A DNA stretch of 64,000 nt, from positions 27,582 through 91,581 of the forward strand of contig JACAFG010000005.1 in the NCBI GenBank assembly GCA_019352195.1. The letters are read 5' to 3'. This DNA comes from Candidatus Saccharimonadota bacterium (GTDB lineage Bacteria; Patescibacteriota; Saccharimonadia; UBA4664). The translations under genes and the position numbers were made by a program. The notes beneath the pieces were generated by a model. That model searched no databases. It saw only the letters and a list, made by a program, of their open reading frames with translations, and was not told where the DNA came from. This document shows, piece after piece, positions 3,785 to 45,615 of the stretch. Position 1 is the first letter of the stretch. Each line of letters opens with the position of its first letter.

Positions 3785-3854
3785 GGACGTCCGGCCGACG
3801 GGTCGGCCGGCATAGATGATCCCGATATTACGACCCCCCTTAAACCCCAACTCG

Positions 3855-4907: not shown

Positions 4908-5947
4908 TGACGACGAATATGTTTCATTCACGCATTCGTAACAAACTGGTAGCTGCGGCGGCCGCGTTAATCGTATTCTCGCCGCTCACGGCCGACGCGG
5001 CGGGGTTAACGGCGCGCTCCGATGTTATGGGAACGTCGGAGGCCGGTATCAGCACCACACACATTATTTCGATGACAACGGCCACCGCGGCCAGTATTGG
5101 TTCAATTGGCTTTTTGATGTGCACTACTTCGTCCGGTGCGTGTACCGTACCTTCAGGACTGGTAACTATCAGTGCTACGTTGTCAGCCCAGAGTGGCACC
5201 GGTGGGACCGGGTTTACACTGAACGCAACCACCAACGGTGCGCCCTATATAACCCGCACGGCAGCGGCCATTGCGGCTAGTGTTCCGCTTAGCTATACAT
5301 TGTCGAACGTTACTAACCCAACCGCTACTGATACCACGTTTTATATCCGTATTACGACCTATACCGGCTCGGACGGAGCAACCGGCGCCACTGATACCGG
5401 CCAGATTGCCGCTTCAACCGCGACGCCAATTCAGCTGACCGGGGTAACCCCGCCAATTTTGGTATTTTGCGTCGGTACGAGTATCCCGACCGACTGTACG
5501 AGTGCCACGGGGAATACCATCGACTTCGGTGATTTCTCGCCGGCTAGCACCAACATCGGAACCAGCGTGATGCAGGCGCAAACCAACGCGGCTAACGGCT
5601 ATACCATAACCGTAAACGGCACCACGCTGTCGTCCGGTACCAATACGATAACCGCTATGAGCGGCGCTGCTAGCACCACCGGATCGAGTCAGTTTGGCCT
5701 TAACTTACGGGTAAATACCGCGCCGGCGGTGGGCGCCGATGTTACCGGACCGGGAAGTGGGGTGCCAGTGTTCAACTACGCGAGTGCCAATAACTATCGT
5801 TTTAATACGGGCGATGTGGTGGCTTCGGCAGCGCTGCCCACGAACGCTAATACCTTTACGACCAGCTATATTGTGAACATTGGCGGAGCTCAGGCGGCGG
5901 GTGTATATACCGCCACCATGACCTACATCTGTACGGCTAGTTTCTAA
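4907..5947 (+). CDS. secreted Ser/Thr-rich surface protein, WxL-like family paralog 4
   Basis: Its ATG overlaps the previous stop (TAATG). Signal peptide ends ADAAG. It has an SSQFGLN motif and a C-terminal MTYICTASF. Confidence 0.7.
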   Translation: MTTNMFHSRIRNKLVAAAAALIVFSPLTADAAGLTARSDVMGTSEAGISTTHIISMTTATAASIGSIGFLMCTTSSGACTVPSGLVTISATLSAQSGTGGTGFTLNATTNGAPYITRTAAAIAASVPLSYTLSNVTNPTATDTTFYIRITTYTGSDGATGATDTGQIAASTATPIQLTGVTPPILVFCVGTSIPTDCTSATGNTIDFGDFSPASTNIGTSVMQAQTNAANGYTITVNGTTLSSGTNTITAMSGAASTTGSSQFGLNLRVNTAPAVGADVTGPGSGVPVFNYASANNYRFNTGDVVASAALPTNANTFTTSYIVNIGGAQAAGVYTATMTYICTASF

Positions 5948-8667: not shown

Positions 8668-8684
8668 ATAAAAACGCTTATGAT
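8656..8684 (+). promoter_or_regulatory. sigma70-like promoter TTGTGT-17-TATGAT of the giant surface-protein gene
   Basis: -35 TTGTGT 8656-8661, 17-nt spacer, -10 TATGAT 8679-8684. The same promoter with the same AAACGCTTATGATT spacer/-10 recurs at 14886-14914. Downstream is GGAGA-3nt-GTG. Confidence 0.5.
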
Positions 8685-8713
8685 TGGAACAGTATTTTTG
8701 TGTTTGGAGACCT

Positions 8714-11700: not shown

Positions 11701-14700
11701 TATCCTCACGAACAACGGCATCATCGTCGAGAGTATTTCGGCCGGCGCGGGTTCCGGTGGGACGGTTAATAACTACGGTATTAATCTCGCCCAGCCGAGT
11801 GGTAGCGGTACCGGCACGACCAACAACTACGGCATTAACATTCAGGGTGCGGGTGGTGGCTCTAACAACTACTCCATCTACAACCAATCGACGGCGGCCA
11901 GTTACTTCTCGGGCAATGTTGGCATTAACCAACTGACCACCGGCTCCTACAACCTGAATGTAAACGGCACGGCTAACTTTGCGACCAGTATTAATGTGCC
12001 GAGCATTACATCGAGTGCGGGCCTCACCTTGGCGACTACGGGGACGAACGGTCTGACGGCTGATACAGGTGGAGCAGGGACTATCAAAGTTGGTGCGGCC
12101 AACGCCAACAGTATTTTGATTGGAACAGCGACAACAGCCCAGGCATCTGGCGCGACAGGCACTATCTTCATTGGCAACACGAACTCAACAATTGTCGGTA
12201 TTTCGGGTCAAACGGTTGGTGTTGGTTCACCCTCCGGTGGCGCGCTGTTTATTACGGGCGGCGGTGTCAATGTGCAAGGTGCGTCGGCATTGGCGATGCT
12301 TTTCAATGTCACCAACACATCAAACAAGACCATCCTTCATGTCGATAGTAGCGCTAATGTGGTGAGCTTGGGCCAAACTTCAAACCTGACTGGCCAACTG
12401 CAATTTAGTAATGCGACGAACGCGTTTACGTCGACGATTCAGGGTAACACGGCAGCAACGGCGAGCTACACGTCGATTTTGCCCGGCGCGGTAGGGTCGG
12501 CTGGTCAATGTTTGACCGTGGCTAGCGTGGCCTCGACAACGCAAACCCTGGGTTATAGCGCTTGTGGCGGCGGTAGCTACGTAACGTTGCAAGGTGTTAC
12601 GCCCGGCACGGCCGATACTGGTAATCTCAATATTACTGGCACGGGTATCTTTGCTACTCAGATAACTTCGCCGATCGTTAAGACAACGAACCTGCGCCCA
12701 ACGGCCGACGGCACCTCGGCTATTCAATTCCAGAACGCTGCTGGCACCACTAACGTGTTGACGGTTGATACTACGAATAGTCGAATTAACGTAGGTACCA
12801 ATGGCACACCGACTGGGCAATTGTATGTTTCGGGTACTTTGCCGACGGCTGCGGCTGGATCGGTATCAACTGGCTCAGCTCCTAATAACATTTACGTTCA
12901 AGGTCATTACGCCTATACAGCCAACTATAGCTCTAGCACGCTCGGTATTTATGATGTCAGTAACCCCGCCGCCCCTTTCAGTGTAGGGTCGGTCTCTATC
13001 TCCATAGCGACCAATGTCTATGTTCAGGGTCGTTATGCCTATGTTACAAGCCAGGGCAGCGGTGGCATTGTCATTGTTGATGTCAGTAATCCAAGCAGTC
13101 CGATCAGTGTTGGCTCGGTAGCTACGGGGAGTAATCCCAAGAGTATATTTGTACAAGGAAGTTATGCGTACGTAGTCAATAACGGAGCTAGTACCATAAG
13201 CATTGTTGATGTTCACAATCCGGCAAGCCCCACAATCATCGGATCTACGGCTACAGGCCTCAATCCAAGCAGTGTTTATGTCCAGGGCAGGTATGCCTAT
13301 GTGATAAATAATACTGCGAGTACCTTGAGCATTATTGATGTCAACAATCCGGCAAGTCCATCCAGTGTTGGATCGGTAGCTACTGGCTCCAACCCAAATG
13401 CCGTCTTTGTTCAAGATAACTATGCATATGTAACAAATAACAGCGGTGCCGGGATGAGCGTCATTGATGTCTCGGCCCCAAGTGCGCCATCGAGCGTGGG
13501 TACCGTAGCAACCGGTACGTCTCCCAACGGTATTTACGTTCAAGGACGGTACGCCTATGTGGCAAATAGTGGCTCAAACACAATTGGCATTTACGATGTT
13601 GGTGGCGCCTACACGCAGCAACTGGAGGCGGGCGGAGCACAGCTAGGTATGCTGGCCGTGGATGGCAACTCTACGTTGGCTGGAGATGCCTCGGTGCAGG
13701 GCGGCCTGCAGGTAGGGCAGAGCGTCCAAATTGGGGGCGATGCCGGTATTAACGGTGGCTTGTCGGTGGGGGGCTCGGCGTCATTCGATGGTCCCGTGCA
13801 GGTAGGTTCATCGCTTACCGACACGACGCAGGTAAACTTGCAGCTCGATTCGACGAGCTTGTTCGCAGATAGCGGCACTTGCAGCACCACCACTAATCAG
13901 GGTGCCTTGTATTACAATACCAACACCAACGCCATCCGGAGTTGTGTGGGCGGAGCGTGGGAAGACGTGATAACGACGAGTGGTCTTGGCCTGGTATTAT
14001 TTGGTATTGTGCCCGACGGTGTAGCAACAACCGGTGTCGGCGACTTGGCTGGTGCCGGCGGATATAATTCGGGTCCGTGCAAAGTTTACATGAGCGGTAC
14101 GGCAAATATTATTGTCTGGAACTCGTGTACGGCGTACTCGAGTGGCCGCAAAGTGGCGGTGGCCGCCGGTACAGCGACGGTGAGTTCGAGCACGAGTGTC
14201 TTCCAAAACTTGTGTATCAATACATCGGGCGTGGCGGCGCTGGTGGGAACGGCTAACGCCACAGAAACTACCGCTGGCCTGTTCCCGGCCTTTTCACCGA
14301 GCGCACCAATACTGTGTTTGGCTACCATAAAAACGGCGACGGTAGCGAATAAAGTGGCGGCAATTTACGATACGCGCGTATATACCACCGATGACAAGAC
14401 CATTGCGACCATTGCAACTACTACCGGCCTTGGATCGATGGTCACAAACAACGGCACCCTCGGTCGCTATGCACCCACGAGTGCGGTAACCAACTCAATT
14501 ATGGGCGTGGTGGTGGCCTATAGCGGCACGGTGAGTACGGCAACGCCGAATGCGATTATTGTTACCTATGGTCCAGTGGCCATTAAAGGCACGGGTACTT
14601 CTGGCACGATTGCCCAGATGATTGAATGGGGTGCGGCCAACGGTTATGCCACCACGGTGGCGGCGGCGACGACGGCCACCAACCCTTATACGTATGCTGG

Positions 14701-14794
14701 TGTGGCCCAAAATACCAATGGTACCGTAGCGGCAGGCTGTGCTGTGTACACGGCATGTAGTGGGTCGTTGTTTACTACTTTTGCGCCAAGATAA
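8714..14794 (+). CDS. giant secreted cell-surface protein with LVIVD beta-propeller repeats
   Basis: The ORF track gives 8684..14794 (2036 aa) from a TTG that lies upstream of the predicted transcription start site (TSS). The likely start is GTG 8714, preceded by GGAGA, giving MSRLWLLKLNKRP... plus a hydrophobic core and ASA cleavage site. Seven tandem ~40-aa LVIVD-type repeats (YVQGRYAYV...IVDVSNP) lie at ~12890-13600. The protein is T/S/G/A-rich, with GIGTTSPAANLDV tail-fibre-like motifs. Confidence 0.8.
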   Translation: MSRLWLLKLNKRPAITRIYTALALAGLFWVGLITLNIPTASATGAAGIYSTINYQGRLLTSTGAVVPDGTYNMEFQIWQDGNGCVTGCTSANASTNNGGTLKWTEDYVYGTGSPDNRVTVKNGYFSVSLGSITSLSSVNFNWDTNYLTTNIGNTSTAATFSVASGDGYMIPFKRLSANPYALNSSQLGGLTSSQYTQLGQGIQGAATTGTTALIGLNQTSTGTILDLQKGGADVLLIDSTGSTLFRPTTDSAIALQVQKAGTTTTVFTVDSSNSRIGIGTAAPAYAVDAVGSINASTSLKVAGTDVCTTAGCTADPASAIKNQNSAQQTSANFWISGSGRADTSILTPGLDTATGVALAIGTTNATSINLNESTNVATGKTFTTNGSGFDATGKLGIGTTSPAANLDVHSTATTGNALSVTANNLTTGIAVNVSSSPTAGTGGALINASQSGTITTSGTVGGSLLNVQRSITANVSAASAITFDSKTTSSSYTWSHTVASQTNRILIVECDSSSAATSATYNGVAMTLIGTITNPSNPSALTFWKLLAPATGTHAVTMDQNCNVGAAIGGVSSSWYNVDQTTGTGTFSSNDAAANNVSVSVASLFGQVVIDGADAYLNGYSSWTNIPGSGQTMLLNPSLSYDSVGASYKAGAATSTTMTWNFSAGAGVHIYIGGFALIQAPTGSAVNLVGSIVNLGSNCTNTAGGCADNSSILSLNQQYASASGAVATLQNAGTGDMVDFLNGSSSILSGFDSSGNLFFNNSTFKSTLSTGTLSAPRSITLPDASGTVCLSVGNCSAAGGYIVNGTSLQASSNFHISGSGTADTSLLTPTLDTASASALSIGVTAATTIGLGRSGQTLNIGSDAINLNNGYLNVAGTTSATNSKASLAGTVASSTTSQYGLDNEVAFNPQVAITGAVYGSVNIPNLSGSALAVSSLQGFTAGVKETGGVGNFTGTVTDAIGLNITSPQITGGGNKFTTYTGVDVGANSINGGNTSGILTNNGIIVESISAGAGSGGTVNNYGINLAQPSGSGTGTTNNYGINIQGAGGGSNNYSIYNQSTAASYFSGNVGINQLTTGSYNLNVNGTANFATSINVPSITSSAGLTLATTGTNGLTADTGGAGTIKVGAANANSILIGTATTAQASGATGTIFIGNTNSTIVGISGQTVGVGSPSGGALFITGGGVNVQGASALAMLFNVTNTSNKTILHVDSSANVVSLGQTSNLTGQLQFSNATNAFTSTIQGNTAATASYTSILPGAVGSAGQCLTVASVASTTQTLGYSACGGGSYVTLQGVTPGTADTGNLNITGTGIFATQITSPIVKTTNLRPTADGTSAIQFQNAAGTTNVLTVDTTNSRINVGTNGTPTGQLYVSGTLPTAAAGSVSTGSAPNNIYVQGHYAYTANYSSSTLGIYDVSNPAAPFSVGSVSISIATNVYVQGRYAYVTSQGSGGIVIVDVSNPSSPISVGSVATGSNPKSIFVQGSYAYVVNNGASTISIVDVHNPASPTIIGSTATGLNPSSVYVQGRYAYVINNTASTLSIIDVNNPASPSSVGSVATGSNPNAVFVQDNYAYVTNNSGAGMSVIDVSAPSAPSSVGTVATGTSPNGIYVQGRYAYVANSGSNTIGIYDVGGAYTQQLEAGGAQLGMLAVDGNSTLAGDASVQGGLQVGQSVQIGGDAGINGGLSVGGSASFDGPVQVGSSLTDTTQVNLQLDSTSLFADSGTCSTTTNQGALYYNTNTNAIRSCVGGAWEDVITTSGLGLVLFGIVPDGVATTGVGDLAGAGGYNSGPCKVYMSGTANIIVWNSCTAYSSGRKVAVAAGTATVSSSTSVFQNLCINTSGVAALVGTANATETTAGLFPAFSPSAPILCLATIKTATVANKVAAIYDTRVYTTDDKTIATIATTTGLGSMVTNNGTLGRYAPTSAVTNSIMGVVVAYSGTVSTATPNAIIVTYGPVAIKGTGTSGTIAQMIEWGAANGYATTVAAATTATNPYTYAGVAQNTNGTVAAGCAVYTACSGSLFTTFAPR

Positions 14795-34936: not shown

Positions 34937-35257
34937 CTACGACGCTAATACGGGTTGCAGCAGCATGCCGTTGTCGTCCGGGTGAATCATCATGATTACG
35001 CTGAAGTGCTGGTCCAACAAACTCTTAAACTTGGCAGCGAGCTCAATAATGAGCTCATCTCGCGCGCATGAAGTGCTAGAGACACTTAAATCGATGTCGA
35101 TACCCTTCCGGTGGAGTCGAATGCCAAATCTCAGATCGGTGGTGGTAGCGATGACGATCTGCTGCATGGCGCCAAATATGGCGTGGTTAAGGGGAGCGTA
35201 AACCATCCCTTCGTTGCTCGCCTCATTGTGGGTGGCGCGGATGCTGATCATTTTCAT
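34937..35257 (-). CDS. hypothetical small protein
   Basis: 106-aa ORF with a dedicated terminator. Confidence 0.5.
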   Translation of the reverse strand: MKMISIRATHNEASNEGMVYAPLNHAIFGAMQQIVIATTTDLRFGIRLHRKGIDIDLSVSSTSCARDELIIELAAKFKSLLDQHFSVIMMIHPDDNGMLLQPVLAS

Positions 35258-36392: not shown

Positions 36393-36780
36393 AATCAATG
36401 TCGTATTATACAGGTATAAATGGTTTGCGCCCATCCGAGATGAGGGCTGGGCGCATGGAACTGGGCGTCGTTGTTACCGGCTTCGTTTAGTGATCCAAGT
36501 GAAACACCTCGACTACCAGCCGCACGACGGCAACCAAGCTCCGGCGATCATTTCGGGCAATGCCGAGGAACAAAGTGTAGGCGCCAAGCCCAATGAGGCA
36601 GATACCAGCAATGAGGAGAGCTGTCACGGTCAGCTTCTTTCTAGTTGAGGAAGCTACGGATGGTTGACGCTGGTAATCCAAAGGGCAATTAAAATATTAT
36701 AATACTAATTGACATAAAAAGCAAGACTATTTGATGTAACAAAAAAGCGCCAGTGAGGCGCTTGTTTGCGGGTGGGCCGA

Positions 36781-37125
36781 TTACTTAGTATCGGCTTCGG
36801 TAACGGGCGACGGGTCTTCGGGTTGGACTTTGTCGACCGTTTCGCTCTCGAGCTCAGCCTGAACTTTGGCCAGCTTGTCGTCCTTGGCGTTTTGGCGGCC
36901 AGCTTCAACTTCGGCAGCTTTGGTAGCGGCAGCCTGGCGGGCGCGGAACTTGTCGACGCGACCGGCCGTGTCAATCAGCTTCTGCTTGCCCGTATAGAAC
37001 GGGTGGCAGTTGGAGCAGATTTCAACCGTGATCTCTTCAACGGTGGTGTGCAACGTAAAGTTGGTGTCACAGCCGTTGCAGTGAACCTTGGTTTCGAAGA
37101 GGTGGGGATGAATAGCGGTTTTCAT
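36781..37125 (-). CDS. rpmE: ribosomal protein L31 with C-terminal acidic extension
   Basis: MKTAIHP...CNGCDT...[10 protein letters not shown] zinc ribbon. Confidence 0.85.
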
Positions 37126-37280
37126 AACTTAACGAGTGTAGCGTATCTGGCGAGGTTTGGCAAGGGTCGTTGGAGCTAACAGCGTATGACCGGTCAAGTA
37201 GCTTAGGTTTAGGCGCAAAGCAGTCGAAAAATGGAAACCGCCCGCCCTCGAAATGGATCGAAGAGCGGACGGCACGAGCG

Positions 37281-37595
37281 TTACGAGCCAGAGCTAACAG
37301 CTCCCAAAAGCACCAGATTGGCCTCGTGGATGAGGTCTGGCCGAGCTTCGAACAGAGCGGCCTCGGCATGGATGATACGGGCCAAATTGCACCGGATTTG
37401 CTGCTGGTGCGGGCTACCGGGTTCGCTGGCCAAATAGGCGAGCAGAGCGTCCGCATCCACCCAGAGGGCGCAGTATTCGGCCAGTTCGCGCTGCTTCACA
37501 GCGCTACCGGTCATGAAGTAAAGGCCGGCCTCGATGAGGCCAAGATGTGGCGGCAGGGTGGCCGACACGTTTGTCGAAGAGCGAGGAGTCGTCAC
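37281..37595 (-). CDS. hypothetical protein (104 aa), island gene a
   Basis: GTG 37595 is preceded by AGGAGG-5nt. It has its own TTGACA-17-CATAAT promoter at 37647-37675. GC is ~60%. Confidence 0.5.
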   Translation of the reverse strand: MTTPRSSTNVSATLPPHLGLIEAGLYFMTGSAVKQRELAEYCALWVDADALLAYLASEPGSPHQQQIRCNLARIIHAEAALFEARPDLIHEANLVLLGAVSSGS

Positions 37596-37674
37596 GGCGA
37601 CCTCCTTTCTAGAGTTGAAGTCGCGTAAACGCATCGGGTTGGCGAAATTATGCGAGAAAATACAACAAGTGTCA

Positions 37675-37723
37675 ACAAAAGCGAAACCGCCCGCTCCCAA
37701 GCTGTAAACTCGGGAGCGGGCGG
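37675..37723 (-). terminator. rho-independent terminator after island gene b
   Basis: 12-bp GC stem CCGCCCGCTCCC / GGGAGCGGGCGG (37687-37723), followed on the minus strand by TTTCGCTTTTGTTG. Confidence 0.6.
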
Positions 37724-37741
37724 CGGATTTCGATGAGCGGG

Positions 37742-38563
37742 TCAGTAGGCCTTGGCCCGATGGCTGCTCGCGTGACGCCAAGCATTGCGTGCGTGGACCG
37801 ACCTGGCTCGGCCGATGGGGCCAAATTGCTGGCCCGTGCCAGGTCCAGTCGTTGGGGCATCAGAAGGCAGGGACCTTCGCAACAGCGAATCTTGCAACCA
37901 GGCGTCGGTCGCCGATTTGGCGGGAGCCTTGTTGGCCAACGTATGGCCCGGGCTAGCCGGATCGACGAAGACCGTCTGGAAAGTATGCCGCTTCGGAAGC
38001 AAAGGATCCGCGACGGCGACTGAACGTTGGACCGCGTCGAGTTGATCCTGATCCCAGCGCGACAAGGCTTCCTTGGTCCCGGGGAGCCATCCGTTGCCGC
38101 TGATGTCGGCGATGGCCCATTGATGTCTGGCCCTGAAGCGTCGCCGCTCATCTGAAACCTGCTCGAATCTACTCAAGACATCCACGAGCGAGGAAAAAGT
38201 CTCCCTTGCCTTCGCGTTCTGGAGGGAATGCTCACCCTCGTAGAGCGGGTTTCTGAAGCGCTGGTAGCCCTCTGTCATATCGGTCCAGTCGAATATATTA
38301 GTGGTCCTTGTGAGATCAACATGAGCACCATCCTCGCCGAATCCGTAGGGCTTTTCCTGCCAACGCGGATAGAGGCGTTCGGTGAGCTCGTCCGTTCGGG
38401 CGAAGATGTCATCGCCTGGCTGCTCTGGCGGCGCGGTCAACTTGGCGGCGGCGAGTCGGGCCGTGAATGCGTCACGGATGGACGGCAAGTCCTCGCCGTT
38501 GTCGCTGGTCAAGGCGATGAGGCGGCGAAATGGATTCTCCTGCGGCGGTTCGGGAATGGTCAT
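37742..38563 (-). CDS. hypothetical protein (273 aa), island gene b
   Basis: Its ATG overlaps the stop of the upstream 60-aa gene (ATGA). It is R/D-rich with no family recognised. Confidence 0.6.
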   Translation of the reverse strand: MTIPEPPQENPFRRLIALTSDNGEDLPSIRDAFTARLAAAKLTAPPEQPGDDIFARTDELTERLYPRWQEKPYGFGEDGAHVDLTRTTNIFDWTDMTEGYQRFRNPLYEGEHSLQNAKARETFSSLVDVLSRFEQVSDERRRFRARHQWAIADISGNGWLPGTKEALSRWDQDQLDAVQRSVAVADPLLPKRHTFQTVFVDPASPGHTLANKAPAKSATDAWLQDSLLRRSLPSDAPTTGPGTGQQFGPIGRARSVHARNAWRHASSHRAKAY

Positions 38564-38742
38564 GGCAGAAGCCTTTCGGAAGTTGGGGACGCGGGGAGTT
38601 GGGGCGTGACGGGTATGTGGTCAGATTCGGCGACGGGCCAGAGCGCGTCAGTGACGCGCACTTGGGCCGGTACACCGGGAGCAATCGACCACATGGTGAC
38701 AACGACGAGCTCGCGCGCGTCGGGGACTTGGGATATGGGCAT
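38560..38742 (-). CDS. hypothetical small protein (60 aa), island gene c
   Basis: ATG 38742 is preceded by GAGGAG-7nt. It is translationally coupled to gene b. Confidence 0.55.
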   Translation of the reverse strand: MPISQVPDARELVVVTMWSIAPGVPAQVRVTDALWPVAESDHIPVTPQLPASPTSERLLP

Positions 38743-38810
38743 ACAACAACTCCTCTGGTTGGGGCGCAAATTGTGGAGAGCTGGGTTTTGAGACAAAACT
38801 TGATTGCATA

Positions 38811-38839
38811 ATTATGTGTGTAAAAGTGCTTTTTGTCAA
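38811..38839 (-). promoter_or_regulatory. TTGACA-17-CATAAT promoter of c-b operon
   Basis: Minus-strand -35 is the complement of 38834-38839; -10 is the complement of 38811-38816. The identical hexamers are used for gene a. Confidence 0.5.
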
Positions 38840-39211
38840 CAACTAAATGCCTTACAAACGAAAGGACCCACCTTCTCGTGATACTTGAGAGGATGGGCCG
38901 GTAAACGGCAACCAGGTACGGTCGTCGTTTAGATGGTGAACGGGGAGCGGCAGGCTGAGTTGCGTCGCATGAACGCGGCGGGCAGGCTAGCGCCGGGTCG
39001 GTAGGCCATGCGAGCCGAATCGATGACCGGCGGGGCGGAGCGTGTCTGTCGAGTGCGAGATTTCGCAGGGCTGCAGGATAGGCGTTGGGATTGTTTTTCA
39101 GCAGTGTTCTGATGTCCTCGTTGCTGAGTCCATCAGTCGCCGAGATGCTGGCGGGGCTGAAATCCGTCATGGGACGGTCCTTTCGATCGAGCTGGGTTGA
39201 GAGTTGAACTG

Positions 39212-39499
39212 TTACCGCTTGAGAATGGCGGCCATTTGTTGGCCGACGCCGCTGATGAATAACTCGGGGCGGCGAACCATGGCCCCGCGGATGAGCGCCA
39301 GGGCATCCATTTGGTTGTCGGTGAGATAGGCTCCATTCATGATGATCCTCAGATAGCCGGGATCGATGAACTGCATCGCCACCGTGATGCCGGTATCCAG
39401 CCCGGCCGTGAAAAGCGCATTTGACGCGGGGTCGGTGTCGGCCGCCTCACGCACGGCGTGGATGAGAGCGAGCAGGGTCGGGGCGGTGGTATCCGTCAC
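39212..39499 (-). CDS. hypothetical protein (95 aa), island gene d2
   Basis: GTG 39499 is preceded by AAAGGA. A TTGACT-17-TATGAT promoter lies at 39554-39582. The 20-nt RBS region TCGATCGAAAGGACCGTC is duplicated at 39171-39190, in front of a degenerate second copy. Confidence 0.45.
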   Translation of the reverse strand: MTDTTAPTLLALIHAVREAADTDPASNALFTAGLDTGITVAMQFIDPGYLRIIMNGAYLTDNQMDALALIRGAMVRRPELFISGVGQQMAAILKR

Positions 39500-39716
39500 T
39501 TGACGGTCCTTTCGATCGATGTAAACCAGCACGACAGAACTGCCGATTAAGTTATCATAGCACAAAATATGGTAATAGTCAACTATTCGCATCACCCATT
39601 GTTGCTTAGGTAAGGGAGATCTGGTATGCTTGCTCGGTCAAATCAACGAACGAAGCAACCTAACCGTAATCCTCCCGCTCGGGTGGTTAGGCGAAGCCGA
39701 AAGGACACAATTTAAA

Positions 39717-40439
39717 ATGGCAACTGCCAACCTCAAAGAATTATTGGAGGCCGGAGCTCACTTCGGTCACCAAACCCGTCGATGGAACCCTAAGATGAAA
39801 CAATACATCTACGGTGCTCGTGGTGGTGTACATATTATTGACCTCGTTCAAACGGGTCCATTGCTGGACGCTGCGATTAAATTTGTTCATGACACCACGG
39901 CCGGTGGTGGCAAAGTACTGTTTGTAGCTACCAAGCGTCAGGCAGCTGGGATTGTAAAGGCAGAGGCAGAAGCTGCTGGTATGCCGTTTGTAACCGAGCG
40001 CTGGCTTGGCGGTATGCTGACCAACTTCCGAACGATCCGGACGCAAGTTGCCCGCCTCAAGAAAATTGAAGCAGGGCTTGAGAGTGGCGATTACGCGACT
40101 AAGTACAACAAGAAAGAGCAGCTGGACTTTACCAATGAAGCTGCTCGCCTCAACCGCATTTTTGGCGGCATCAAGAACATGGACGCGTTACCAGCGGCAA
40201 TTTTTGTAGTCGACGCTCCCAAGGAAGACCTGGCTATTGCTGAGGCTCGTAAACTGGGTATTCCGGTGGTTGCTATGGCCGATACCAACGCTGACCCCGA
40301 TCTCATCGACTATCTGATTCCCGCGAACGATGATGCCATTAAGACGGTTAAGATTATCACTCACCTCATTGCTGAGGCCGCGTCTAATGGTAACCAAATC
40401 GCCTCAGTTCGCGCCAAAGAAGCTGCTGACCAAGCGTAA
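39717..40439 (+). CDS. rpsB: 30S ribosomal protein S2
   Basis: MATANLKELLEAGAHFGHQTRRWNPKM, with an AAAGGA SD. The ORF-track N-terminal extension is taken as not translated. Confidence 0.9.
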   Translation: MATANLKELLEAGAHFGHQTRRWNPKMKQYIYGARGGVHIIDLVQTGPLLDAAIKFVHDTTAGGGKVLFVATKRQAAGIVKAEAEAAGMPFVTERWLGGMLTNFRTIRTQVARLKKIEAGLESGDYATKYNKKEQLDFTNEAARLNRIFGGIKNMDALPAAIFVVDAPKEDLAIAEARKLGIPVVAMADTNADPDLIDYLIPANDDAIKTVKIITHLIAEAASNGNQIASVRAKEAADQA

Positions 40440-41099: not shown

Positions 41100-41153
41100 G
41101 GCAAAGCTAGACGGATGAGGGGTAATTAACCCCTAAAATCTCTGAGCAACCCT

Positions 41154-41183
41154 CAAAAACACCGCTTGTGGCGGTGTTTTTGG
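41154..41183 (+). terminator. bidirectional terminator after tsf
   Basis: AAAAAC-ACACCGC-ttgtg-GCGGTGT-TTTTTGG. Confidence 0.6.
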
Positions 41184-41227
41184 TATAACGGGCGCCTTGG
41201 TGATAACTTATGCCTAGCAGCAACGAA

Positions 41228-41254
41228 GCCCCACAGCGGGGCACGCCGTGGGGC
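41228..41254 (-). repeat. variant copy of the GC-rich palindromic element (GCCCCAC-13nt-GTGGGGC)
   Basis: It has the same 7-bp stem and the CGAAGCCCCAC flank as the five main copies. It lies downstream of the 41283..41615 ORF. Confidence 0.6.
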
Positions 41255-41282
41255 AGCAATGATGAGGAAGTGCACAGATTGG

Positions 41283-41615
41283 TCAGCTCCCGCGAACCTT
41301 CGAAATTCGCTGAACCGGACCGGTCACAAATGGGAAACTATATTTCAAACTGAACAGCCACATTGGCTCGCCGCATTTGATGACGGTTGCTGCAGGGTGG
41401 TAGGGATCATGATGCGGGCAGAGGAGCTTGACGTCGCTTGCAAATGGAAAGGTGGAAAAGGGGGTTGTCCCAAATGCTTCCCACGTAGTGGCGAGTCTCC
41501 AAATCTTGATTGTGTCGTCATCGCTAAGCTGTATGACATAGCTGCCACTTACGCGGACCCCGGTATCTATTTGATACCTGCCGCAGCCGACGGTGGTGTC
41601 GAGTTGGTTCCTCAC
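41283..41615 (-). CDS. hypothetical ORF with WD40-repeat-like fragment
   Basis: 110 aa. The motif SGSYVIQLSDDDTIKIWRL resembles a WD40 blade. It may be a remnant. Confidence 0.3.
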   Translation of the reverse strand: MRNQLDTTVGCGRYQIDTGVRVSGSYVIQLSDDDTIKIWRLATTWEAFGTTPFSTFPFASDVKLLCPHHDPYHPAATVIKCGEPMWLFSLKYSFPFVTGPVQRISKVRGS

Positions 41616-41683
41616 GTGAGGGCTCTTTTCTATGACGAGGGTTTTGTTTTGGATATAGTGACCCCAGCACGGTTATTTGGCAA

Positions 41684-41720
41684 GGCGAAGCCCCACTGGC
41701 AATGGGGTCGCCGGTGGGGC
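41684..41720 (-). repeat. GC-rich palindromic element copy 1 (terminator-like)
   Basis: GCGAAGCCCCACTGGCAATGGGGTCGCCGGTGGGGC lies immediately 3' of the A1 stop. Confidence 0.75.
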
Positions 41721-41727
41721 AGGATGG

Positions 41728-42447
41728 TCAGTGGGACAGATTGTAGTGCCGGATGAGCGCGCCGGCCAGCGCAGTGAGGACCTCAGTGTCGCCGGTGCTC
41801 AATTGGTGCCCCCCGTTTCGCAACTGGCGCAAGTGGACAGCAATCGACTGGGGCGTGTAGCCGATGAGGTCGCCGAGCTGAGCCAAGCCGCAGGCTTTCA
41901 ACAGCTCCAGTTTACGCCTCGAAATATCGATGCGTGGGTGCTTTATGCGGAACATGTCGTTGCAGGCTCTCGTCAGCGTGATGGCCCGAAACTGGTCCAA
42001 CGGCACATAGATAGCGCCGTTGATGGTGGGGTAAGTGAACCAGTCGGCGCGGTTACCGGCTGCCGAACCCAGTTCCACCCCAGCCCGCGAGAGCAAGCCG
42101 AGGATGATGTTGACGCGGTTGACGCCCAGGCCTCTGATATCGGAAAGCTCCTTACGAGTGATCAACGCACAGTCGGCCAGGGAATTGATCCACAGATGCT
42201 CCTTGAGAGGGCACACCGCCGTGAGCTCCTCACCCTGGAGCTGGCGGCTCAGATCGAGGAGCGGCATGTCAGGGTCAAGCTTAGGCTTGGGCCCGGCCGA
42301 ACTGAAGGCCATCACCCTGTCGTCCACCGCGGCAAAGTAGCGATTGGAGCCATTAGCCGTGAGCACGAGGCGTGGGTCGGACAAAAGTATTTGTGTGACA
42401 GCGTCGGTGTCGTCGGGCTTAACCTCGAGAACAATTCGTGTGCGCAT
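41728..42447 (-). CDS. family A protein 1: tandem alpha-CTD-like helix-hairpin-helix domains
   Basis: 239 aa. The segments ADCALITRKELSDIRGLGVNRVNIILGLLSRAGVELG and ISRRKLELLKACGLAQLGDLIGYTPQSI both match the RpoA C-terminal domain pattern (LSxRxxNxLKxxxIxxIGDL...EL...G...I..L..RG). Confidence 0.7.
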   Translation of the reverse strand: MRTRIVLEVKPDDTDAVTQILLSDPRLVLTANGSNRYFAAVDDRVMAFSSAGPKPKLDPDMPLLDLSRQLQGEELTAVCPLKEHLWINSLADCALITRKELSDIRGLGVNRVNIILGLLSRAGVELGSAAGNRADWFTYPTINGAIYVPLDQFRAITLTRACNDMFRIKHPRIDISRRKLELLKACGLAQLGDLIGYTPQSIAVHLRQLRNGGHQLSTGDTEVLTALAGALIRHYNLSH

Positions 42448-42484
42448 GGGAGCGCCTCTCTGTGAGGAACGATTTTGAAATCAG

Positions 42485-42518
42485 GTTATATCAAAGCAAA
42501 ATAATCCTCAAAAGTCAA
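42485..42518 (-). promoter_or_regulatory. promoter of A1 (extended -10 TGaTATAAC; TTGACT upstream)
   Basis: Minus strand reads TTGACT...TGATATAAC. The -35/-10 spacing is 22, so it is probably extended-minus-10 driven. Confidence 0.4.
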
Positions 42519-42531
42519 TATTTGCGCCCAA

Positions 42532-42568
42532 GACGAAGCCCCACTGGCAATGGGGTCGCCGGTGGGGC
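42532..42568 (-). repeat. GC-rich palindromic element copy 2
   Basis: Identical 37-mer lying 3' of the A2 stop. Confidence 0.75.
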
Positions 42569-42576
42569 AGGGAAGA

Positions 42577-43293
42577 CTAGAGCTTGATATCGCAGTGGGA
42601 GGCAATCTGCCACAAGAAGATGGCTACATGGGGCGGCATATTTTGGCCGTTGGCTTGCAGCTGCCGCGAATTGATAGAGTCTATGGTCTGGCCGCGCAGA
42701 TCTCCCAGCGTACGCAAGTCCAGGGCCGCCAGCGTGGTATCGCTGATGTAGACATCGGGGCGATGCTGATGGTCGAGGGTGCATTTTACCCCGATCCAGC
42801 TGTCAGCCCACCTGAGCGGGATGGCACGAAACTGAGCTGGGGGGACCAATTCATCCAGAAATTTGTAGCCGCTACGCTGGTACTTGGCCAGCGAACCCAC
42901 GGTTACATGCGCTTCTTCGAGCAGGTCGATCAAAGCCTGGAGCTTCATTGGGCCCATACCCAGGAGACGGCCGAGCTCCGCTTCGGTGACGAAGGAACAG
43001 TCGGCGAGCCGATTAATCCACAAATGCCGCTCCATTAAAATGGGGACGGCACTGGATTGGTGGCCGCTCAGGTGGGGCACGAGATCGCTGAACGGTACGT
43101 CGGCCAAGTCGTCGACATAATTATCGACCCGAATATTGTTTTGGGCGCACAGACGCAACAGCTGCGCGCTCAAGCTCTCCTTGCCTAAGGGCGGAGCCGG
43201 CGTTCCTTCCGCCGTGGCTTGGATAGCGGCGCACAATCTCAGGACGAGACGGAAATCAATGTCGGCGGCTGGATTTACCACGGTATTGGTCAT
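42577..43293 (-). CDS. family A protein 2 (paralog of 41728..42447)
   Basis: 238 aa. It shares HLWIN[SR]LADC...GLG and PxxQFRAI blocks with A1. Confidence 0.7.
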   Translation of the reverse strand: MTNTVVNPAADIDFRLVLRLCAAIQATAEGTPAPPLGKESLSAQLLRLCAQNNIRVDNYVDDLADVPFSDLVPHLSGHQSSAVPILMERHLWINRLADCSFVTEAELGRLLGMGPMKLQALIDLLEEAHVTVGSLAKYQRSGYKFLDELVPPAQFRAIPLRWADSWIGVKCTLDHQHRPDVYISDTTLAALDLRTLGDLRGQTIDSINSRQLQANGQNMPPHVAIFLWQIASHCDIKL

Positions 43294-43339
43294 GGCATAC
43301 TCATTTCAAGGTCAGAAGGGATAGGAAGGGAGTAGAAGT

Positions 43340-43368
43340 CTTATAACACTATATTATTCTTAAGTAAA
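43340..43368 (-). promoter_or_regulatory. promoter of A2, TTTACT-17-TATAAG
   Basis: -10 is the complement of 43340-43345; -35 is the complement of 43363-43368. Confidence 0.5.
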
Positions 43369-43383
43369 GAAATGATGGTCCAA

Positions 43384-43420
43384 GACGAAGCCCCACTGGC
43401 AATGGGGTCGCCGGTGGGGC
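43384..43420 (-). repeat. GC-rich palindromic element copy 3
   Basis: Identical 37-mer lying 3' of the B1 stop. Confidence 0.75.
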
Positions 43421-43439
43421 AGGGAACGAGCTAGAGGTG

Positions 43440-44003
43440 CTACTCGAACGATTCGGTATCAGGGTTAAAGGGGACGTAAGTCGTTCTCGCTGCCACGTAC
43501 GTAATGGGATCGAGAGGGTCGGTGATATGGGGTCCCTGCGCTTGCAGCATCGTGGTGAGTATCGAAATAGAGTTGAGCCAATCGTTGGGCACGAAGACGA
43601 TGCTCATATCGTCGTTGCCGCTATCGCGCCGGATAGCCTGTGCAAGCACTTGCATCTCCGCCAGATTCAAGGGATCGACCTGGCAGAAGGCGTCAACGAG
43701 AAACGCTTCGAGCGAGGTACCGAGGAGATCCCAAGTGATGTTCTTGCGGTTCTCGTGCCATAACTGCGCAGACGGTGCTTCGCCTATTCTCGTTTGGCGG
43801 TGATCGTGCAACCGCGGTCTGGTCATGCGGTCGAAGTACTCCCCGATGAGGGGATCATTGACCGCGACGAGGATCGCTACTTCGTGGCGTCCGTAGTTCG
43901 GATTGGTGAAGGTCCAAACTTTATTCACCGGACGAAGTTTGAGGAGCTCTCTGGCGAAGAGCTCAGACCTCATGAGCCGAGATACTTCCTGTTGGGGCGA
44001 CAT
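43440..44003 (-). CDS. family B protein 1 (unknown function)
   Basis: The ORF track gives 43440..44129, but its 5' part runs through the upstream element and promoter. The predicted TSS is ~44060. The start is chosen at MSPQQ (GGAGA-4nt-ATG, 44003). The alternative MTSGDP start is at 44021. The conserved C-terminus is FNPDTESFE. Confidence 0.65.
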   Translation of the reverse strand: MSPQQEVSRLMRSELFARELLKLRPVNKVWTFTNPNYGRHEVAILVAVNDPLIGEYFDRMTRPRLHDHRQTRIGEAPSAQLWHENRKNITWDLLGTSLEAFLVDAFCQVDPLNLAEMQVLAQAIRRDSGNDDMSIVFVPNDWLNSISILTTMLQAQGPHITDPLDPITYVAARTTYVPFNPDTESFE

Positions 44004-44066
44004 AGGGTCTCCAGATGTCATGGGGTGCAAAAGCCGTGGCCGGATGGTCATAGCTTGGTTATGGTA

Positions 44067-44095
44067 TTTATAACTTGAAATGCTAAAAAAGTCAA
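44067..44095 (-). promoter_or_regulatory. promoter of B1, TTGACT-17-TATAAA
   Basis: -10 is the complement of 44067-44072; -35 is the complement of 44090-44095. Confidence 0.6.
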
Positions 44096-44110
44096 TGATT
44101 GAGTGCAAAC

Positions 44111-44147
44111 GACGAAGCCCCACTGGCAATGGGGTCGCCGGTGGGGC
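44111..44147 (-). repeat. GC-rich palindromic element copy 4
   Basis: Identical core lying 3' of the B2 stop. Confidence 0.75.
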
Positions 44148-44157
44148 TGAGTGAAGG

Positions 44158-44733
44158 TCACTCGTGGTCCTCGAAGGAGGCGGTATCTGGATTGAAGCGG
44201 GCGTAGGTCAGGGCCGCCAGGTTGAAGGTCTCGGGTTCGAGTGGGTCGGTGATGGAATCTACTCCCAGTCGGTACAGCTTTTCTGTCAGCACCGAAACAC
44301 AGTCGAGCCAGTTGTTAGGCGCCAGAATGATGCTCATGTTGTGGTTGCCGCTATCGCGCTGCATAACGCCAGCCAGCTCCTGCATCGTCGCCAGATTCGC
44401 GGGCTCGATCTGGCAGAAGGCGCGGACGAGAAACGCTTCGAACGAGGTGCCGAGGAGATCCCAGGTGATGGTCTGGCGGTCCTCTACCCAATACCTATCC
44501 GACGTCAAGTCGTTGTATCGGGTGCGGCGGTGACGGTGAGCCCATGGCAGGGCCAGGCGCTTGAAGTACTCGTCGACCAGGCGGTCGCGGACCGATACGA
44601 GCATGGCCGTTTCCGGGTGTCCGAAGTTGGGGTTGGTAATCGCCCAAACTTTGATCACGGGGTCAAGCTTGAGCAGCTCTCTGGCCATGAGAGCAGGCCC
44701 GGTGAGCCGAGATACTTCCTGTTGAGTCGACAT
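44158..44733 (-). CDS. family B protein 2 (paralog of B1)
   Basis: The 5' UTR-start region ATGACATCTGGAGACCCTATGTCG is conserved at nucleotide level with B1. The protein shares WDLLGTS[LF]EAFLV and FNPDTASFE. The start is chosen at MSTQQ (44733); the alternative is 44751. Confidence 0.65.
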   Translation of the reverse strand: MSTQQEVSRLTGPALMARELLKLDPVIKVWAITNPNFGHPETAMLVSVRDRLVDEYFKRLALPWAHRHRRTRYNDLTSDRYWVEDRQTITWDLLGTSFEAFLVRAFCQIEPANLATMQELAGVMQRDSGNHNMSIILAPNNWLDCVSVLTEKLYRLGVDSITDPLEPETFNLAALTYARFNPDTASFEDHE

Positions 44734-44796
44734 AGGGTCTCCAGATGTCATGAGGTGCGAAAGCCGTGAGCGGGTGCTGACGGCTTGGTTATACAA

Positions 44797-44825
44797 TTTA
44801 TAACTTTAAATTGTTAAAATGTCAA
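44797..44825 (-). promoter_or_regulatory. promoter of B2, TTGACA-17-TATAAA
   Basis: -10 is the complement of 44797-44802; -35 is the complement of 44820-44825. Confidence 0.6.
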
Positions 44826-44840
44826 TGTTTTGGTGCGGAC

Positions 44841-44877
44841 GACGAAGCCCCACTGGCAGTGGGGTCGCCGGTGGGGC
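44841..44877 (-). repeat. GC-rich palindromic element copy 5 (one substitution, CAGT for CAAT)
   Basis: Lies 3' of the B3 stop. Confidence 0.75.
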
Positions 44878-44887
44878 TGAGTGAGGG

Positions 44888-45439
44888 TTACTCGTTGATG
44901 AGGAGGTACCGGGCGAAGTCGCCGGTGCCCGGGCGATAGAGCTGGGGGGCGTTGGCCGCGACGGAGAAGGCGCGGGCCTCGAGCGGATCGACCACCTCCT
45001 GGGTGGGCAGGCGGGCGTCGAGATGATCGGCGTTGTAGCGCCAGAAGGGTGCCACCAAGACGATGTCCAGGCGCCCGAGGAACAGGTCATCGATGAGTGC
45101 CGCGCCTTCATCGCCGTACTGCTGGTAGAGCTCACCGACGAGTTCTTCCCAGCGGATGTCAAGGAGGTCCCAGACGAGTTCGAGGCGGGTTTCGGGCGCC
45201 TCCGTGGTCCAGCTGTGGCCGTTGTCGTCGGAATCGGTATCGACGATGATGTACGGGACGGCCAGCCGTTCCATGTAGACCTCGGCGAGCTCGGGGGTGA
45301 CCTCGACCGCGAGGCGGGCCACGGCATTGTTGGCATCGTTCGGTGCGACGGCGACCCGGCAGATCTCGGTCACGCATTCGAGGCGAAACAGCACCTGGGC
45401 GGCCAGGTGCACGGTGGTGAGTTCGACGCTTGCGGGCAT
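44888..45439 (-). CDS. family B protein 3 (divergent acidic paralog)
   Basis: It shares WDLL..., the [LI]V[FL]V[PA][NP][DF]W block, and the C-terminal YRPGTGDF (cf. FNPDTESF). The start is chosen at MPASVELT (GGAG-6nt-ATG). The alternative MELLMPAS start is at 45451. The ORF-track start at 45550 lies upstream of the promoter. Confidence 0.55.
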   Translation of the reverse strand: MPASVELTTVHLAAQVLFRLECVTEICRVAVAPNDANNAVARLAVEVTPELAEVYMERLAVPYIIVDTDSDDNGHSWTTEAPETRLELVWDLLDIRWEELVGELYQQYGDEGAALIDDLFLGRLDIVLVAPFWRYNADHLDARLPTQEVVDPLEARAFSVAANAPQLYRPGTGDFARYLLINE

Positions 45440-45505
45440 GAGTAACTCCATGTTGTGACCAGGGTGCGAAGCTCGCACCAGTTGAGGGTAGAGCTTGATT
45501 AGGCA

Positions 45506-45534
45506 ATTATAACTATGTTGACACAATAAGTCAA
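45506..45534 (-). promoter_or_regulatory. promoter of B3, TTGACT-17-TATAAT
   Basis: -10 is the complement of 45506-45511; -35 is the complement of 45529-45534. It overlaps, face to face, a plus-strand TTGACA at 45518-45523 upstream of frr. Confidence 0.6.
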
Positions 45535-45615
45535 TACTATTTAACCACAACCGGCAACGATACGCCTCGTTGTGATAAAATTAGTGAGAATTTCAGCTAA
45601 TATCCGAGGTAACAA

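Follow-up and report, generated by a model that had tools for sequence, protein, structure and literature searches.

A probable lineage-specific islet of orphan genes between the divergent rpmE and rpsB promoters of a Candidatus Saccharibacteria genome

In a metagenome-assembled genome (MAG) of Candidatus Saccharibacteria, 2438 bp of DNA are inserted exactly at the point where the promoters of rpmE and rpsB diverge, and we regard this DNA as probably a lineage-specific accessory islet of orphan genes, composed of three "moron-like" autonomous units between core promoters in a Saccharimonadales-like chromosome. The units are co-oriented on the minus strand and face rpmE, in the order P3, d2, d1 remnant, T1; then P2, c, b, T2; and finally P1, a, T3. 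Each of them has a near-consensus sigma-70-type promoter, a Shine-Dalgarno (SD) sequence, one or two ORFs and its own G+C-rich hairpin followed by a U tract, in agreement with the modular organization originally predicted for this DNA, and nearly every sequence feature of that prediction was located at, or a few bases from, the position given for it. The islet is best read as one of several in its neighbourhood.

The insert (37164–39601, minus strand) was delimited by promoter alignment and by synteny with the four nearest relatives (L003–L006), and spans from the -35 box of the rpmE promoter to the -35 box of the rpsB promoter. The rpmE promoter, TTGCCA-17-TACACT (37135–37163, minus strand), lies in the flank outside the insert, and its position relative to the rpmE ATG is conserved in L003 and L004. 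On the other side, the rpsB promoter TTGCTT-17-TATGCT (39602–39630, plus strand) also lies in the flank at a position conserved in the alignment with the relatives, and this promoter and the rpsB leader can be aligned from 39602 onward. The comparison with related genomes suggested in the original prediction revealed an insertion, the gap between rpmE and rpsB being 2591 bp here versus 175–549 bp in the four nearest relatives; in L004 only 41 bp separate the -35 boxes. The islet DNA is missing from all sampled relatives.

The gene order prfA-rpmE <-> rpsB-tsf-frr is conserved across the Saccharibacteria loci, and the site is variable in other Saccharibacteria as well, with inserts containing a HAD phosphatase in L041 and L082 and other Pfam-less ORFs in L003, L047, L053 and L058. 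Significant similarity between the gap proteins of other Saccharibacteria and a–d was not found; the 65-aa ORF located at the same site in L003, for instance, is not similar to c (E = 0.86). The content of the interval was not found to be conserved in the lineage, and its proteins did not match core metabolic families. The nearest relatives are distant (rpsB 65–76% identical), so that the date of the gain, and the choice between a gain and multiple losses, rest on parsimony alone; a metagenome scan for closer relatives using the conserved 24-nt rpsB leader gave no matches. The lineage would have gained the islet once it had separated from the sampled relatives, either from an unsampled donor (a Saccharibacteria phage or mobile element) followed by amelioration, or by fast local evolution.

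The promoters P1 (37647–37675) and P2 (38811–38839), both on the minus strand, share the hexamers TTGACA-17-CATAAT and match the consensus at 11 of 12 positions, while P3, TTGACT-17-TATGAT (39554–39582, minus strand), matches at 10 of 12, has an extended TG and is placed back to back with the rpsB promoter; all three had been predicted with these hexamers. Across the 64-kb window, which is the whole stretch of DNA analysed, TTGACA-N17-CATAAT with at most one mismatch occurs only as P1 and P2, against an expectation of 0.19, and none of 100 shuffles contained two or more such sites. Near-consensus sites with at least 10 of 12 matches number nine in the window, three of them inside the 2.4-kb islet, and a 3.5-kb scan returned nine promoter-like sites compared to 1.2 +/- 1.1 in shuffles.

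Terminator T1 (38865–38899, minus strand) closes the d2-d1 unit and is followed by UUUCGUUUGU (38864–38855), with a folding energy of -20.9 kcal/mol (z = -2.9). It was absent from the terminators listed earlier. T2 (37686–37724, minus strand), located after b, consists of an 18-bp stem followed by UUUCGCUUUUG (-38.7 kcal/mol, z = -7.8), and T3 (37237–37273, minus strand), located after a, is followed by UUUCCAUUUUU (37236–37226; -26.5 kcal/mol, z = -3.1) and, as the last terminator, is positioned upstream of rpmE's own promoter. The two GC-stem terminators that had been predicted, T3 and T2, are thus both present, whereas the 12-mer GCGGGCGGTTTC common to two hairpins does not by itself take the relatedness claimed for their sequences past chance, as it gave three matches, a number reached by 8 of 100 shuffles. 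Searches against Rfam gave no match, either for the whole window at the gathering threshold or for the islet at E <= 1. P1–P3 and T1–T3 are consensus or sequence predictions; together with the SDs, these promoter and terminator signals all lie on the ORF strand and are packed far more densely than in shuffles. The housekeeping RNA polymerase may transcribe the units strongly and each on its own, and the terminators would insulate them from one another and from rpmE.

Gene a (37281–37595, minus strand) encodes 104 aa from a GTG start preceded by an AGGAGG SD (37607–37602), with a GC content of 0.66, 0.48 and 0.70 at the three codon positions. Its product is an acidic orphan predicted to be all-helical (AF2 pLDDT 59.2, five helices), and a Foldseek search of the model against the PDB returned nothing below E = 1. 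Genes c and b are adjacent and co-directional, with one promoter (P2) upstream and T2 downstream, and form an operon in which the stop codon of c overlaps the start codon of b in an ATGA at 38563–38560. Gene c (38560–38742, minus strand) has a GAGGAG SD and encodes an acidic protein of 60 aa (pI 4.6), while gene b (37742–38563, minus strand) encodes an orphan of 273 aa with an acidic N-terminal third, a strongly basic C-terminal stretch of 70 aa and no TM segment; the AF2 model of b (pLDDT 38.5) was too poor for a structure search. Inspection of the sequence confirmed the coordinates of a and of the c-b pair, their SDs and the coupling site as predicted. Translation of c and b may be coupled and the two proteins probably work as a complex, and the islet proteins are expected to be soluble and cytoplasmic.

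Gene d2 (39212–39499, minus strand) encodes 95 aa with a GTG start, a GAAAGGA SD and a GC3 of 0.79, and relatives of it were not found. The d1 remnant (38929–39170, minus strand) has an ATG at 39170 and a good SD, and appears coding-like over approximately 25–45 codons, beyond which three-frame translation and a GC-phase switch indicate loss of the frame signal. The annotated frame reaches T1 without a stop codon, its codon-position GC fits only down to approximately 39110 and then switches, and the resulting 232-codon ORF traverses T1, which is the terminator of its own unit, as well as the c-b promoter and gene c. This frame switch and overrun support the original prediction of d1 as a likely pseudogene; it is probably decayed, and the public annotation does not list it as a gene. 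The predicted duplication of the ribosome binding site (RBS) in front of d1 and d2 was also verified, as a block of 38 nt comprising RBS and first codons that is present at 39153–39190 in front of d1 and at 39482–39519 in front of d2 (both minus strand, 82% identical); the copies share the exact 18-mer GACGGTCCTTTCGATCGA covering the SD, and their first three codons are nearly identical too. Similarity between the DNA of d1 and d2 past this repeat was not found, and d1 may be a partial duplicate that has decayed, with its RBS and first codons in common with d2.

Homology searches assigned no family to any of these genes. For b, a word-indexed search of 5.8 G proteins and an exhaustive phmmer search over 1.84 G representatives returned the self match only, as did a large protein search for a, and the orphan status of c and d2 refers to narrower searches than that of a and b. 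In 90% clusters all proteins are singletons, except d2, which clusters with its own alternative-start product of 127 aa. The profile searches called for in the original prediction, with PADLOC among the databases used, gave no match for a, b, c, d1 or d2 in Pfam, NCBIfam, PADLOC or PHROGs, even at E <= 1, and the defence models of PADLOC-DB 2.0 detected no families among these five or among the neighbouring orphans e1–e5. Likewise, no matches were obtained in scans of IMG/VR with a, b, c and d2, in a JGI metagenome scan with d2, in tblastn of b, c and d2 against phages, or in blastn of the islet DNA against phages and plasmids; a PDB sequence search with a, b, c and d2 gave nothing but noise at E >= 0.5, paralogues of a–d were not found elsewhere in the window, and a literature search by accessions found no paper. 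The codon-position pattern of a, b, c and d2 is coding-like (GC1 > GC2 < GC3). Some of these orphan ORFs might nevertheless encode no functional protein.

The islet has a GC content of 0.587 overall, 0.61–0.64 within its ORFs and 0.69–0.79 at third codon positions, compared to 0.51–0.56 for rpmE, rpsB, tsf and prfA. At the 2.4-kb scale the window averages 0.541 +/- 0.019 and the islet is its maximum, so that the predicted GC-rich island is real, but the excess is modest, with 0.586 in a core region near 24.5 kb. The GC-skew and codon analyses proposed earlier gave a skew of the same sign as in the flanks and a codon bias of B = 0.338, inside the distribution of core-gene pairs (95th percentile 0.349). 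Moreover, the dinucleotide distance ranks at the 82nd percentile and, among windows of the same size, 16% correlate less well with the window in tetranucleotides than the islet does, placing all three signatures in the upper tail of native genes. The compositional deviation is too mild to establish a horizontal origin.

Orphan genes are also found beyond the islet. A second island of orphans separates tsf from frr, and further small orphans, s46 and s106, are located nearby; over approximately 20 kb, 12 of 25 called genes have no counterpart in the syntenic loci of relatives, and 11 of these 12 are Pfam-less orphans interleaved among 13 conserved genes. Family scans of the neighbouring orphans e1–e5 and s106 gave no match. 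In codon use the two islands are closer to each other (B = 0.23) than either is to core genes (0.34–0.37). A classical integrative genomic island was rejected because a tRNA or tmRNA target, an integrase and flanking direct repeats are missing: there is no tRNA in the 64 kb, no integrase, transposase or recombinase among the called genes within +/-10 kb, and no att-like direct or inverted repeat was found at the islet ends.

Of the alternative explanations, the one that survives best is that these are native genes, fast-evolving or born de novo, which arose in situ in expanded intergenic DNA. The merely mild atypicality of composition and the unchanged sign of GC skew would fit such an origin, as would the native-looking promoters and RBS sites (the RBS/start block of a resembles that of a neighbouring 46-aa gene), the internal duplication of the 5' ends of d1 and d2, the many small orphans interleaved nearby and the complete lack of homologues. 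However, de novo birth would have had to yield a great deal, namely 2.4 kb of well-formed units complete with canonical terminators and an ORF of 273 aa, at a site where only 41 bp separate the two -35 boxes of a relative, and intermediate forms were not seen in the relatives, the 65-aa ORF of L003 being unrelated. We consider this origin unlikely.

Somewhat less likely still is that c-b represents a toxin-antitoxin (TA) or abortive-infection module of an undescribed family, in which c would neutralise b, and a and d2 would be further small regulators or orphan antitoxins. As in type II TA operons, a small acidic ORF lies upstream of a larger gene with a 4-nt ATGA overlap, the pair has its own strong predicted promoter and terminator, the basic tail of b could be set against the acidic c, and the operon resides in variable, lineage-specific accessory DNA. 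On the other hand, b is large for a type II toxin and, at 273 aa, has no relatives, in contrast to TA and defence families, which as a rule are mobile and occur widely; a toxin or antitoxin domain was not detected in c-b, the profile searches were negative even at the permissive threshold, an autoregulatory operator palindrome is not evident at P2, and the model of b is not usable. The same gene layout occurs in countless non-TA operons, and with no family match the resemblance noted in the original prediction is reduced to this single trait, the small-upstream/large-downstream ATGA-coupled layout.

Saccharibacteria live on Actinobacteria, and a recent transfer from a high-GC actinobacterial host of the epibiont would account for GC and GC3 values above those of the flanking genes and for islet proteins that are Arg-rich and Lys-poor. 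This explanation is very doubtful, as the protein sets of genomes and metagenomes, those of Actinobacteria among them, contain no homologue of a or b, and the promoters and SD sites are similar to the ones found at other units of this genome. The "Actinobacteria-like codon bias" claimed earlier did not hold either, since a GC3 of 0.69–0.79 is well below that of typical high-GC actinobacterial genes and the codon, dinucleotide and tetranucleotide measures are all within the native range. Equally improbable is an artefact, in the form of a mis-assembled or contaminant segment or of non-coding DNA with chance ORFs. The source is a MAG, the models of the orphan proteins are of low confidence and d1 is not a clean ORF, but the islet sequence is 100% identical over 4 kb between the NCBI MAG contig and a Logan contig, assembled by different pipelines though probably from the same reads, and the junctions fall neatly between two conserved promoters, with signal density and codon-position GC again pointing to genuine coding units. 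An integron-type cassette array (CALIN) or other site-specific mobile element, as could be imagined from small orphan ORFs that share one orientation and each precede a GC-rich inverted repeat, with GCGGGCGGTTTC common to two of these repeats, has almost nothing to commend it, as no attC core pair (RYYYAAC...GTTRRRY, 47–166 nt with cores included) occurs on either strand of 37100–39650, the hairpins are near-perfect stems with U tracts, i.e., terminators, every unit has its own promoter, and the integrases, transposases, tRNA and end repeats sought above are missing.

Saccharibacteria are obligate epibionts with tiny genomes, hence the few genes that are added become candidates for lineage-specific interactions with host or phage. 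For the accessory islet favoured here, our guess would be that its genes are not of the housekeeping kind but non-essential, with an accessory or conflict-type role (towards phage, or between host and epibiont), and that c-b is a two-protein module. A bolder proposal, to which we give only a slim chance, is that c-b, perhaps together with a and d2, constitutes an undescribed Saccharibacteria-specific conflict system (toxin-antidote, anti-phage or epibiont-host effector/immunity), and that this CPR lineage gains "chromosomal morons", i.e., orphan genes that arrive already equipped with near-consensus promoters and terminators and that land preferentially in promoter-proximal intergenic DNA beside translation genes, via a route with no integrase, tRNA or repeat trace. 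The locus is a clean and compact case of gene gain among core translation genes, its three units having the strongest predicted promoters of the 64-kb window, and the rpmE-rpsB gap, being recurrently variable across the class, could be useful as a marker or neutral site. Orphan islets are common in CPR genomes; the present one opens no new mechanism and is a modest finding.

Among known systems, the phage moron, a concept of Hendrix and Juhala, is defined as extra DNA with a GC content unlike its surroundings and with its own promoter and terminator (PMC3594210). Similarly, the islet is extra DNA compared to syntenic relatives, its ORFs differ in GC from neighbouring genes (0.61–0.64 versus 0.51–0.56, modest at the 2.4-kb scale), its units carry their own predicted promoters and terminators, and the products are small and mostly of unknown function. 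In contrast to phage morons, it resides in a bacterial chromosome between ribosomal-protein genes and not in a (pro)phage, has no PHROG match, nearby phage genes or phage homologues, and consists of three tandem units without a demonstrated host benefit. With the ORFan islets found at synteny breaks (flexible genomic islands), it shares a variable site, orphan content and a slightly deviant composition, but it differs from them in its very small size (2.4 kb), in lacking a tRNA, integrase or flanking repeats, in its precise location between two divergent core promoters and in its unusually clean promoter/terminator modularity.

The rpmE (36781-37125, minus strand) and rpsB (39717-40439, plus strand) genes of the window are separated by 2591 bp, whereas the corresponding gap is 175-549 bp in the rpsB loci of the four nearest relatives (L003-L006), whose RpsB proteins are 65-76% identical to that of the window. 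The gene order, with prfA upstream of rpmE and tsf, frr and uppS downstream of rpsB, is the same in these four loci and in most other Saccharibacteria, and no tblastn match to the island genes a, b, c and d2 or to the remnant ORF d1 was found in any of the 80 loci obtained by an RpsB-based scan of GTDB representative genomes, indicating that the island is extra DNA. Alignment of the predicted rpsB promoter (39602-39630, plus strand) and leader with the relatives starts at 39602, the predicted rpmE promoter (37163-37135, minus strand) keeps its distance to the ATG in L003 and L004, and 41 bp separate the -35 boxes of the two genes in L004. The insert is therefore placed at 37164-39601 (2438 bp), exactly between the two predicted divergent core promoters.

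The island consists of three self-contained units that all read along the minus strand, each predicted to run from a promoter to an intrinsic terminator: P3, d2 (95 aa), the d1 remnant and T1; P2, c (60 aa) overlapping b (273 aa), and T2; and P1, a (104 aa) and T3. A consensus scan of 36.5-40.0 kb returned nine promoter-like sites compared to 1.2 ± 1.1 in shuffled sequences, and the best three, all on the minus strand, were those originally predicted, namely P1 (TTGACA-17-CATAAT, 37675-37647), P2 (the same hexamers and spacing, 38839-38811) and P3 (TTGACT-17-TATGAT with an extended TG, 39582-39554). With at most one mismatch, TTGACA-N17-CATAAT occurs in the 64 kb at P1 and P2 only (0.19 expected). 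Three of the nine sites in the whole window with at least 10 of 12 matches lie inside the 2.4-kb island, and two more lie upstream of a second orphan island (45534-45506, 11/12) and of the small ORF s106 (35326-35298, 10/12); the window's best promoters belong to orphan units, whose promoter regions have in common features such as GTTGAC(A/T) and a TAATC-like element 3' of the -10 box. The two terminators already proposed, T2 (37724-37686; -38.7 kcal/mol, z = -7.8) and T3 (37273-37237; -26.5 kcal/mol, z = -3.1), proved to be strong folds, and a third, T1 (38899-38865, followed by UUUCGUUUGU), is predicted immediately upstream of the c-b promoter, all three on the minus strand. The supposed relatedness in sequence of T2 and T3 is weak, as 8% of shuffles reach their common 12-mer. 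The rpmE promoter is positioned after T3, while the rpsB promoter stands back to back with P3, their -35 boxes 19 bp apart.

The genes, their Shine-Dalgarno sites and the ATGA overlap of c and b were all as first described. Genes a, b, c and d2 display the codon-position pattern GC1 > GC2 < GC3 and contain no hydrophobic segment; c is acidic, and b is acidic at its N-terminus and very basic over its last 70 residues. The duplication of the RBS block before d1 and d2 is genuine: the copies, 82% identical over 38 nt and sharing an exact 18-mer, span the Shine-Dalgarno sequence and first three codons, and d1 and d2 do not align past them. From its ATG at 39170, d1 runs for 232 codons in a region with no gene in the public annotation. 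Its GC content by codon position is flat (0.57/0.59/0.58), the GC phase signal matches the annotated frame to approximately 39110 and changes beyond, and the frame continues across T1, P2 and gene c into b, while stops break the other frames. The 232-codon ORF is not believable as a gene, in agreement with the suggestion of a likely pseudogene; we treat d1 as a putative decayed duplicate, presumably co-transcribed with d2 and ended by T1, with a sequencing frameshift as the alternative.

None of the products of a, b, c, d1 and d2 matched Pfam, PADLOC, NCBIfam or PHROGs even at E <= 1. Protein b matched only itself, both among 5.8 G clustered proteins and by exhaustive phmmer against 1.84 G representatives, as did a in a large protein search; at 90% clustering a and c are singletons, and d2 clusters only with its own 127-aa alternative-start product. 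No relatives were found of d2 in a JGI metagenome scan, of a, b, c and d2 in IMG/VR, or of b, c and d2 among phage records; the island DNA had no match in phage or plasmid collections, and comparison of a, b, c and d2 with PDB sequences gave noise only. AF2 without alignment produced an unusable model of b (pLDDT 38.5) and five helices for a (pLDDT 59.2), with which Foldseek retrieved nothing at E < 1. An origin of these orphans in situ appears unlikely. Slightly less probable still is a toxin-antitoxin or abortive-infection role of c-b, as originally proposed: it is suggested by gene layout and charge, and the profile searches revealed no recognisable domain, the one feature of membership that could be tested.

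The island had further been described as GC-rich with an Actinobacteria-like codon bias. Its GC content is indeed the maximum of the window (0.587, compared to a mean of 0.541 ± 0.019 for 2.4-kb windows), yet a core region at 24.5 kb equals it (0.586). The pooled codon-usage distance from core genes (B = 0.338) lies under the 95th percentile (0.349) of random pairs of core genes (0.243 ± 0.060), the dinucleotide distance falls at the 82nd percentile, 16% of equally sized windows correlate less well with the window in tetranucleotides, the sign of the GC skew is identical to that of the flanks, and GC3 is 0.69-0.79. The island is therefore mildly atypical and not clearly foreign, and transfer from an actinobacterial source is improbable, since such GC3 values are not actinobacterial. 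The second orphan island resembles it in codon use (B = 0.23), both being Arg-rich and Lys-poor, and is more atypical in composition.

Neither a tRNA nor an Rfam match was found in the window, no repeat pair at the island ends, and no integrase or transposase within ±10 kb. Integron cassettes are also improbable, since no attC core sites were found at the island. The window from 36.5 to 40.5 kb is 100% identical to contig JABBYD010000097.1 of GCA_017884045.1 (Candidatus Saccharibacteria bacterium) and to a Logan assembly contig of SRR11551193, both encoding an identical protein b, and there is little chance that the island is an artefact.

The rpmE/rpsB site is also variable in other Saccharibacteria loci, L003, L047, L053 and L058 each carrying one Pfam-less ORF unrelated to the others and to a-d. 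That of the nearest relative, L003 (9590-9787, minus strand; 65 aa, GC-rich, no Pfam match), has its own Shine-Dalgarno sequence, promoter-like site and downstream hairpin and is unrelated to c (E = 0.86), which suggests that the site repeatedly takes in small autonomous units. Inserts of approximately 2.4 kb, near that of the window in length and unrelated in content, occupy the site in L041 (3866-6233) and L082 (7588-10000); both encode a putative HAD-like phosphatase-type protein, as read from the sequence, together with Pfam-less ORFs, and the L041 insert also encodes a protein resembling Cys/Met-metabolism PLP enzymes (PF01053, E = 4e-14).

Of the genes called in a 20-kb stretch around the island, 13 share synteny with L003-L006 and 12 lack a counterpart in those loci; 11 of the 12 are Pfam-less orphans placed between conserved genes (e1-e5 in the tsf/frr gap; d2, c, b and a; s46 between prfA and rpmE; and s106). 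The tsf/frr gap measures 4517 bp compared to 6-98 bp in L003-L006, and holds the second, larger orphan island (41100-45615) with five minus-strand genes (41728-42447, 42577-43293, 43440-44003, 44158-44733 and 44888-45439) that gave no Pfam, PADLOC or PHROG match. They form the paralogue sets e1/e2/e3 (e2 and e3 58% identical) and e4/e5 (36%), and a terminator-like CCCCATTGCCAGTGGGG recurs in identical copies at 43407-43391 and 42555-42539. The 46-aa hydrophobic ORF s46 (36487-36627, minus strand) fills a prfA/rpmE gap of 346 bp, compared to 70-110 bp in the relatives, and its RBS/start block CTAGAAAGAAGCTGACCGTGACAGCTC shares 78% identity with that of gene a (37612-37586). Downstream of prfA, s106 (34937-35257, minus strand) is a Pfam-less, lineage-specific 106-aa ORF that the syntenic loci of L003-L006 lack. 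Elsewhere, several long plus-strand ORFs, one of 2036 aa, at 2624-5947 and 8684-14794 stand out by an unusual GC2 > GC1 pattern and by the window's most deviant dinucleotide signature, and may encode large surface or repeat proteins.

The rpsB 5' leader (39648-39716) is conserved and structured, corresponding to 9938-10002 in L003, 9938-10001 in L004 and the equivalent region of L005 and L006. Six of the seven pairs in its 7-bp outer stem (CTAACC/GGTTAG in the window, ACGACC/GGTCGT in L003 and L004) have undergone compensatory changes among the five sequences compared, and the stem surrounds a CCUCC-containing hairpin directly upstream of the Shine-Dalgarno sequence. It has no Rfam match and is possibly an S2 autoregulatory leader specific to Saccharibacteria.

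The original prediction is confirmed as an observation, with a third terminator and precise boundaries added, and its interpretation holds in part: the island and its modularity stand, being extra compared to the relatives and built of three promoter-to-terminator units, while the toxin-antitoxin or abortive-infection reading and the actinobacterial origin do not. Judging from the predicted promoters, each unit would be transcribed independently, probably strongly, in a sigma-70-type manner, the terminators would insulate the units so that rpmE retains its own control, and c and b would be translationally coupled, implying joint action. As CPR genomes commonly contain orphan islets, the interest of this one is modest; given its clean architecture and the absence of homologues in the searches made, c-b is a reasonable but low-priority experimental candidate. 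Phage morons are characterized by being extra DNA, by their own promoter and terminator, by deviant GC and by residence in a phage (PMC3594210). The island units share the first three of these four features but are not located in a phage, hence the term moron-like, and we describe the island as a putative lineage-specific orphan islet of moron-like autonomous expression units.
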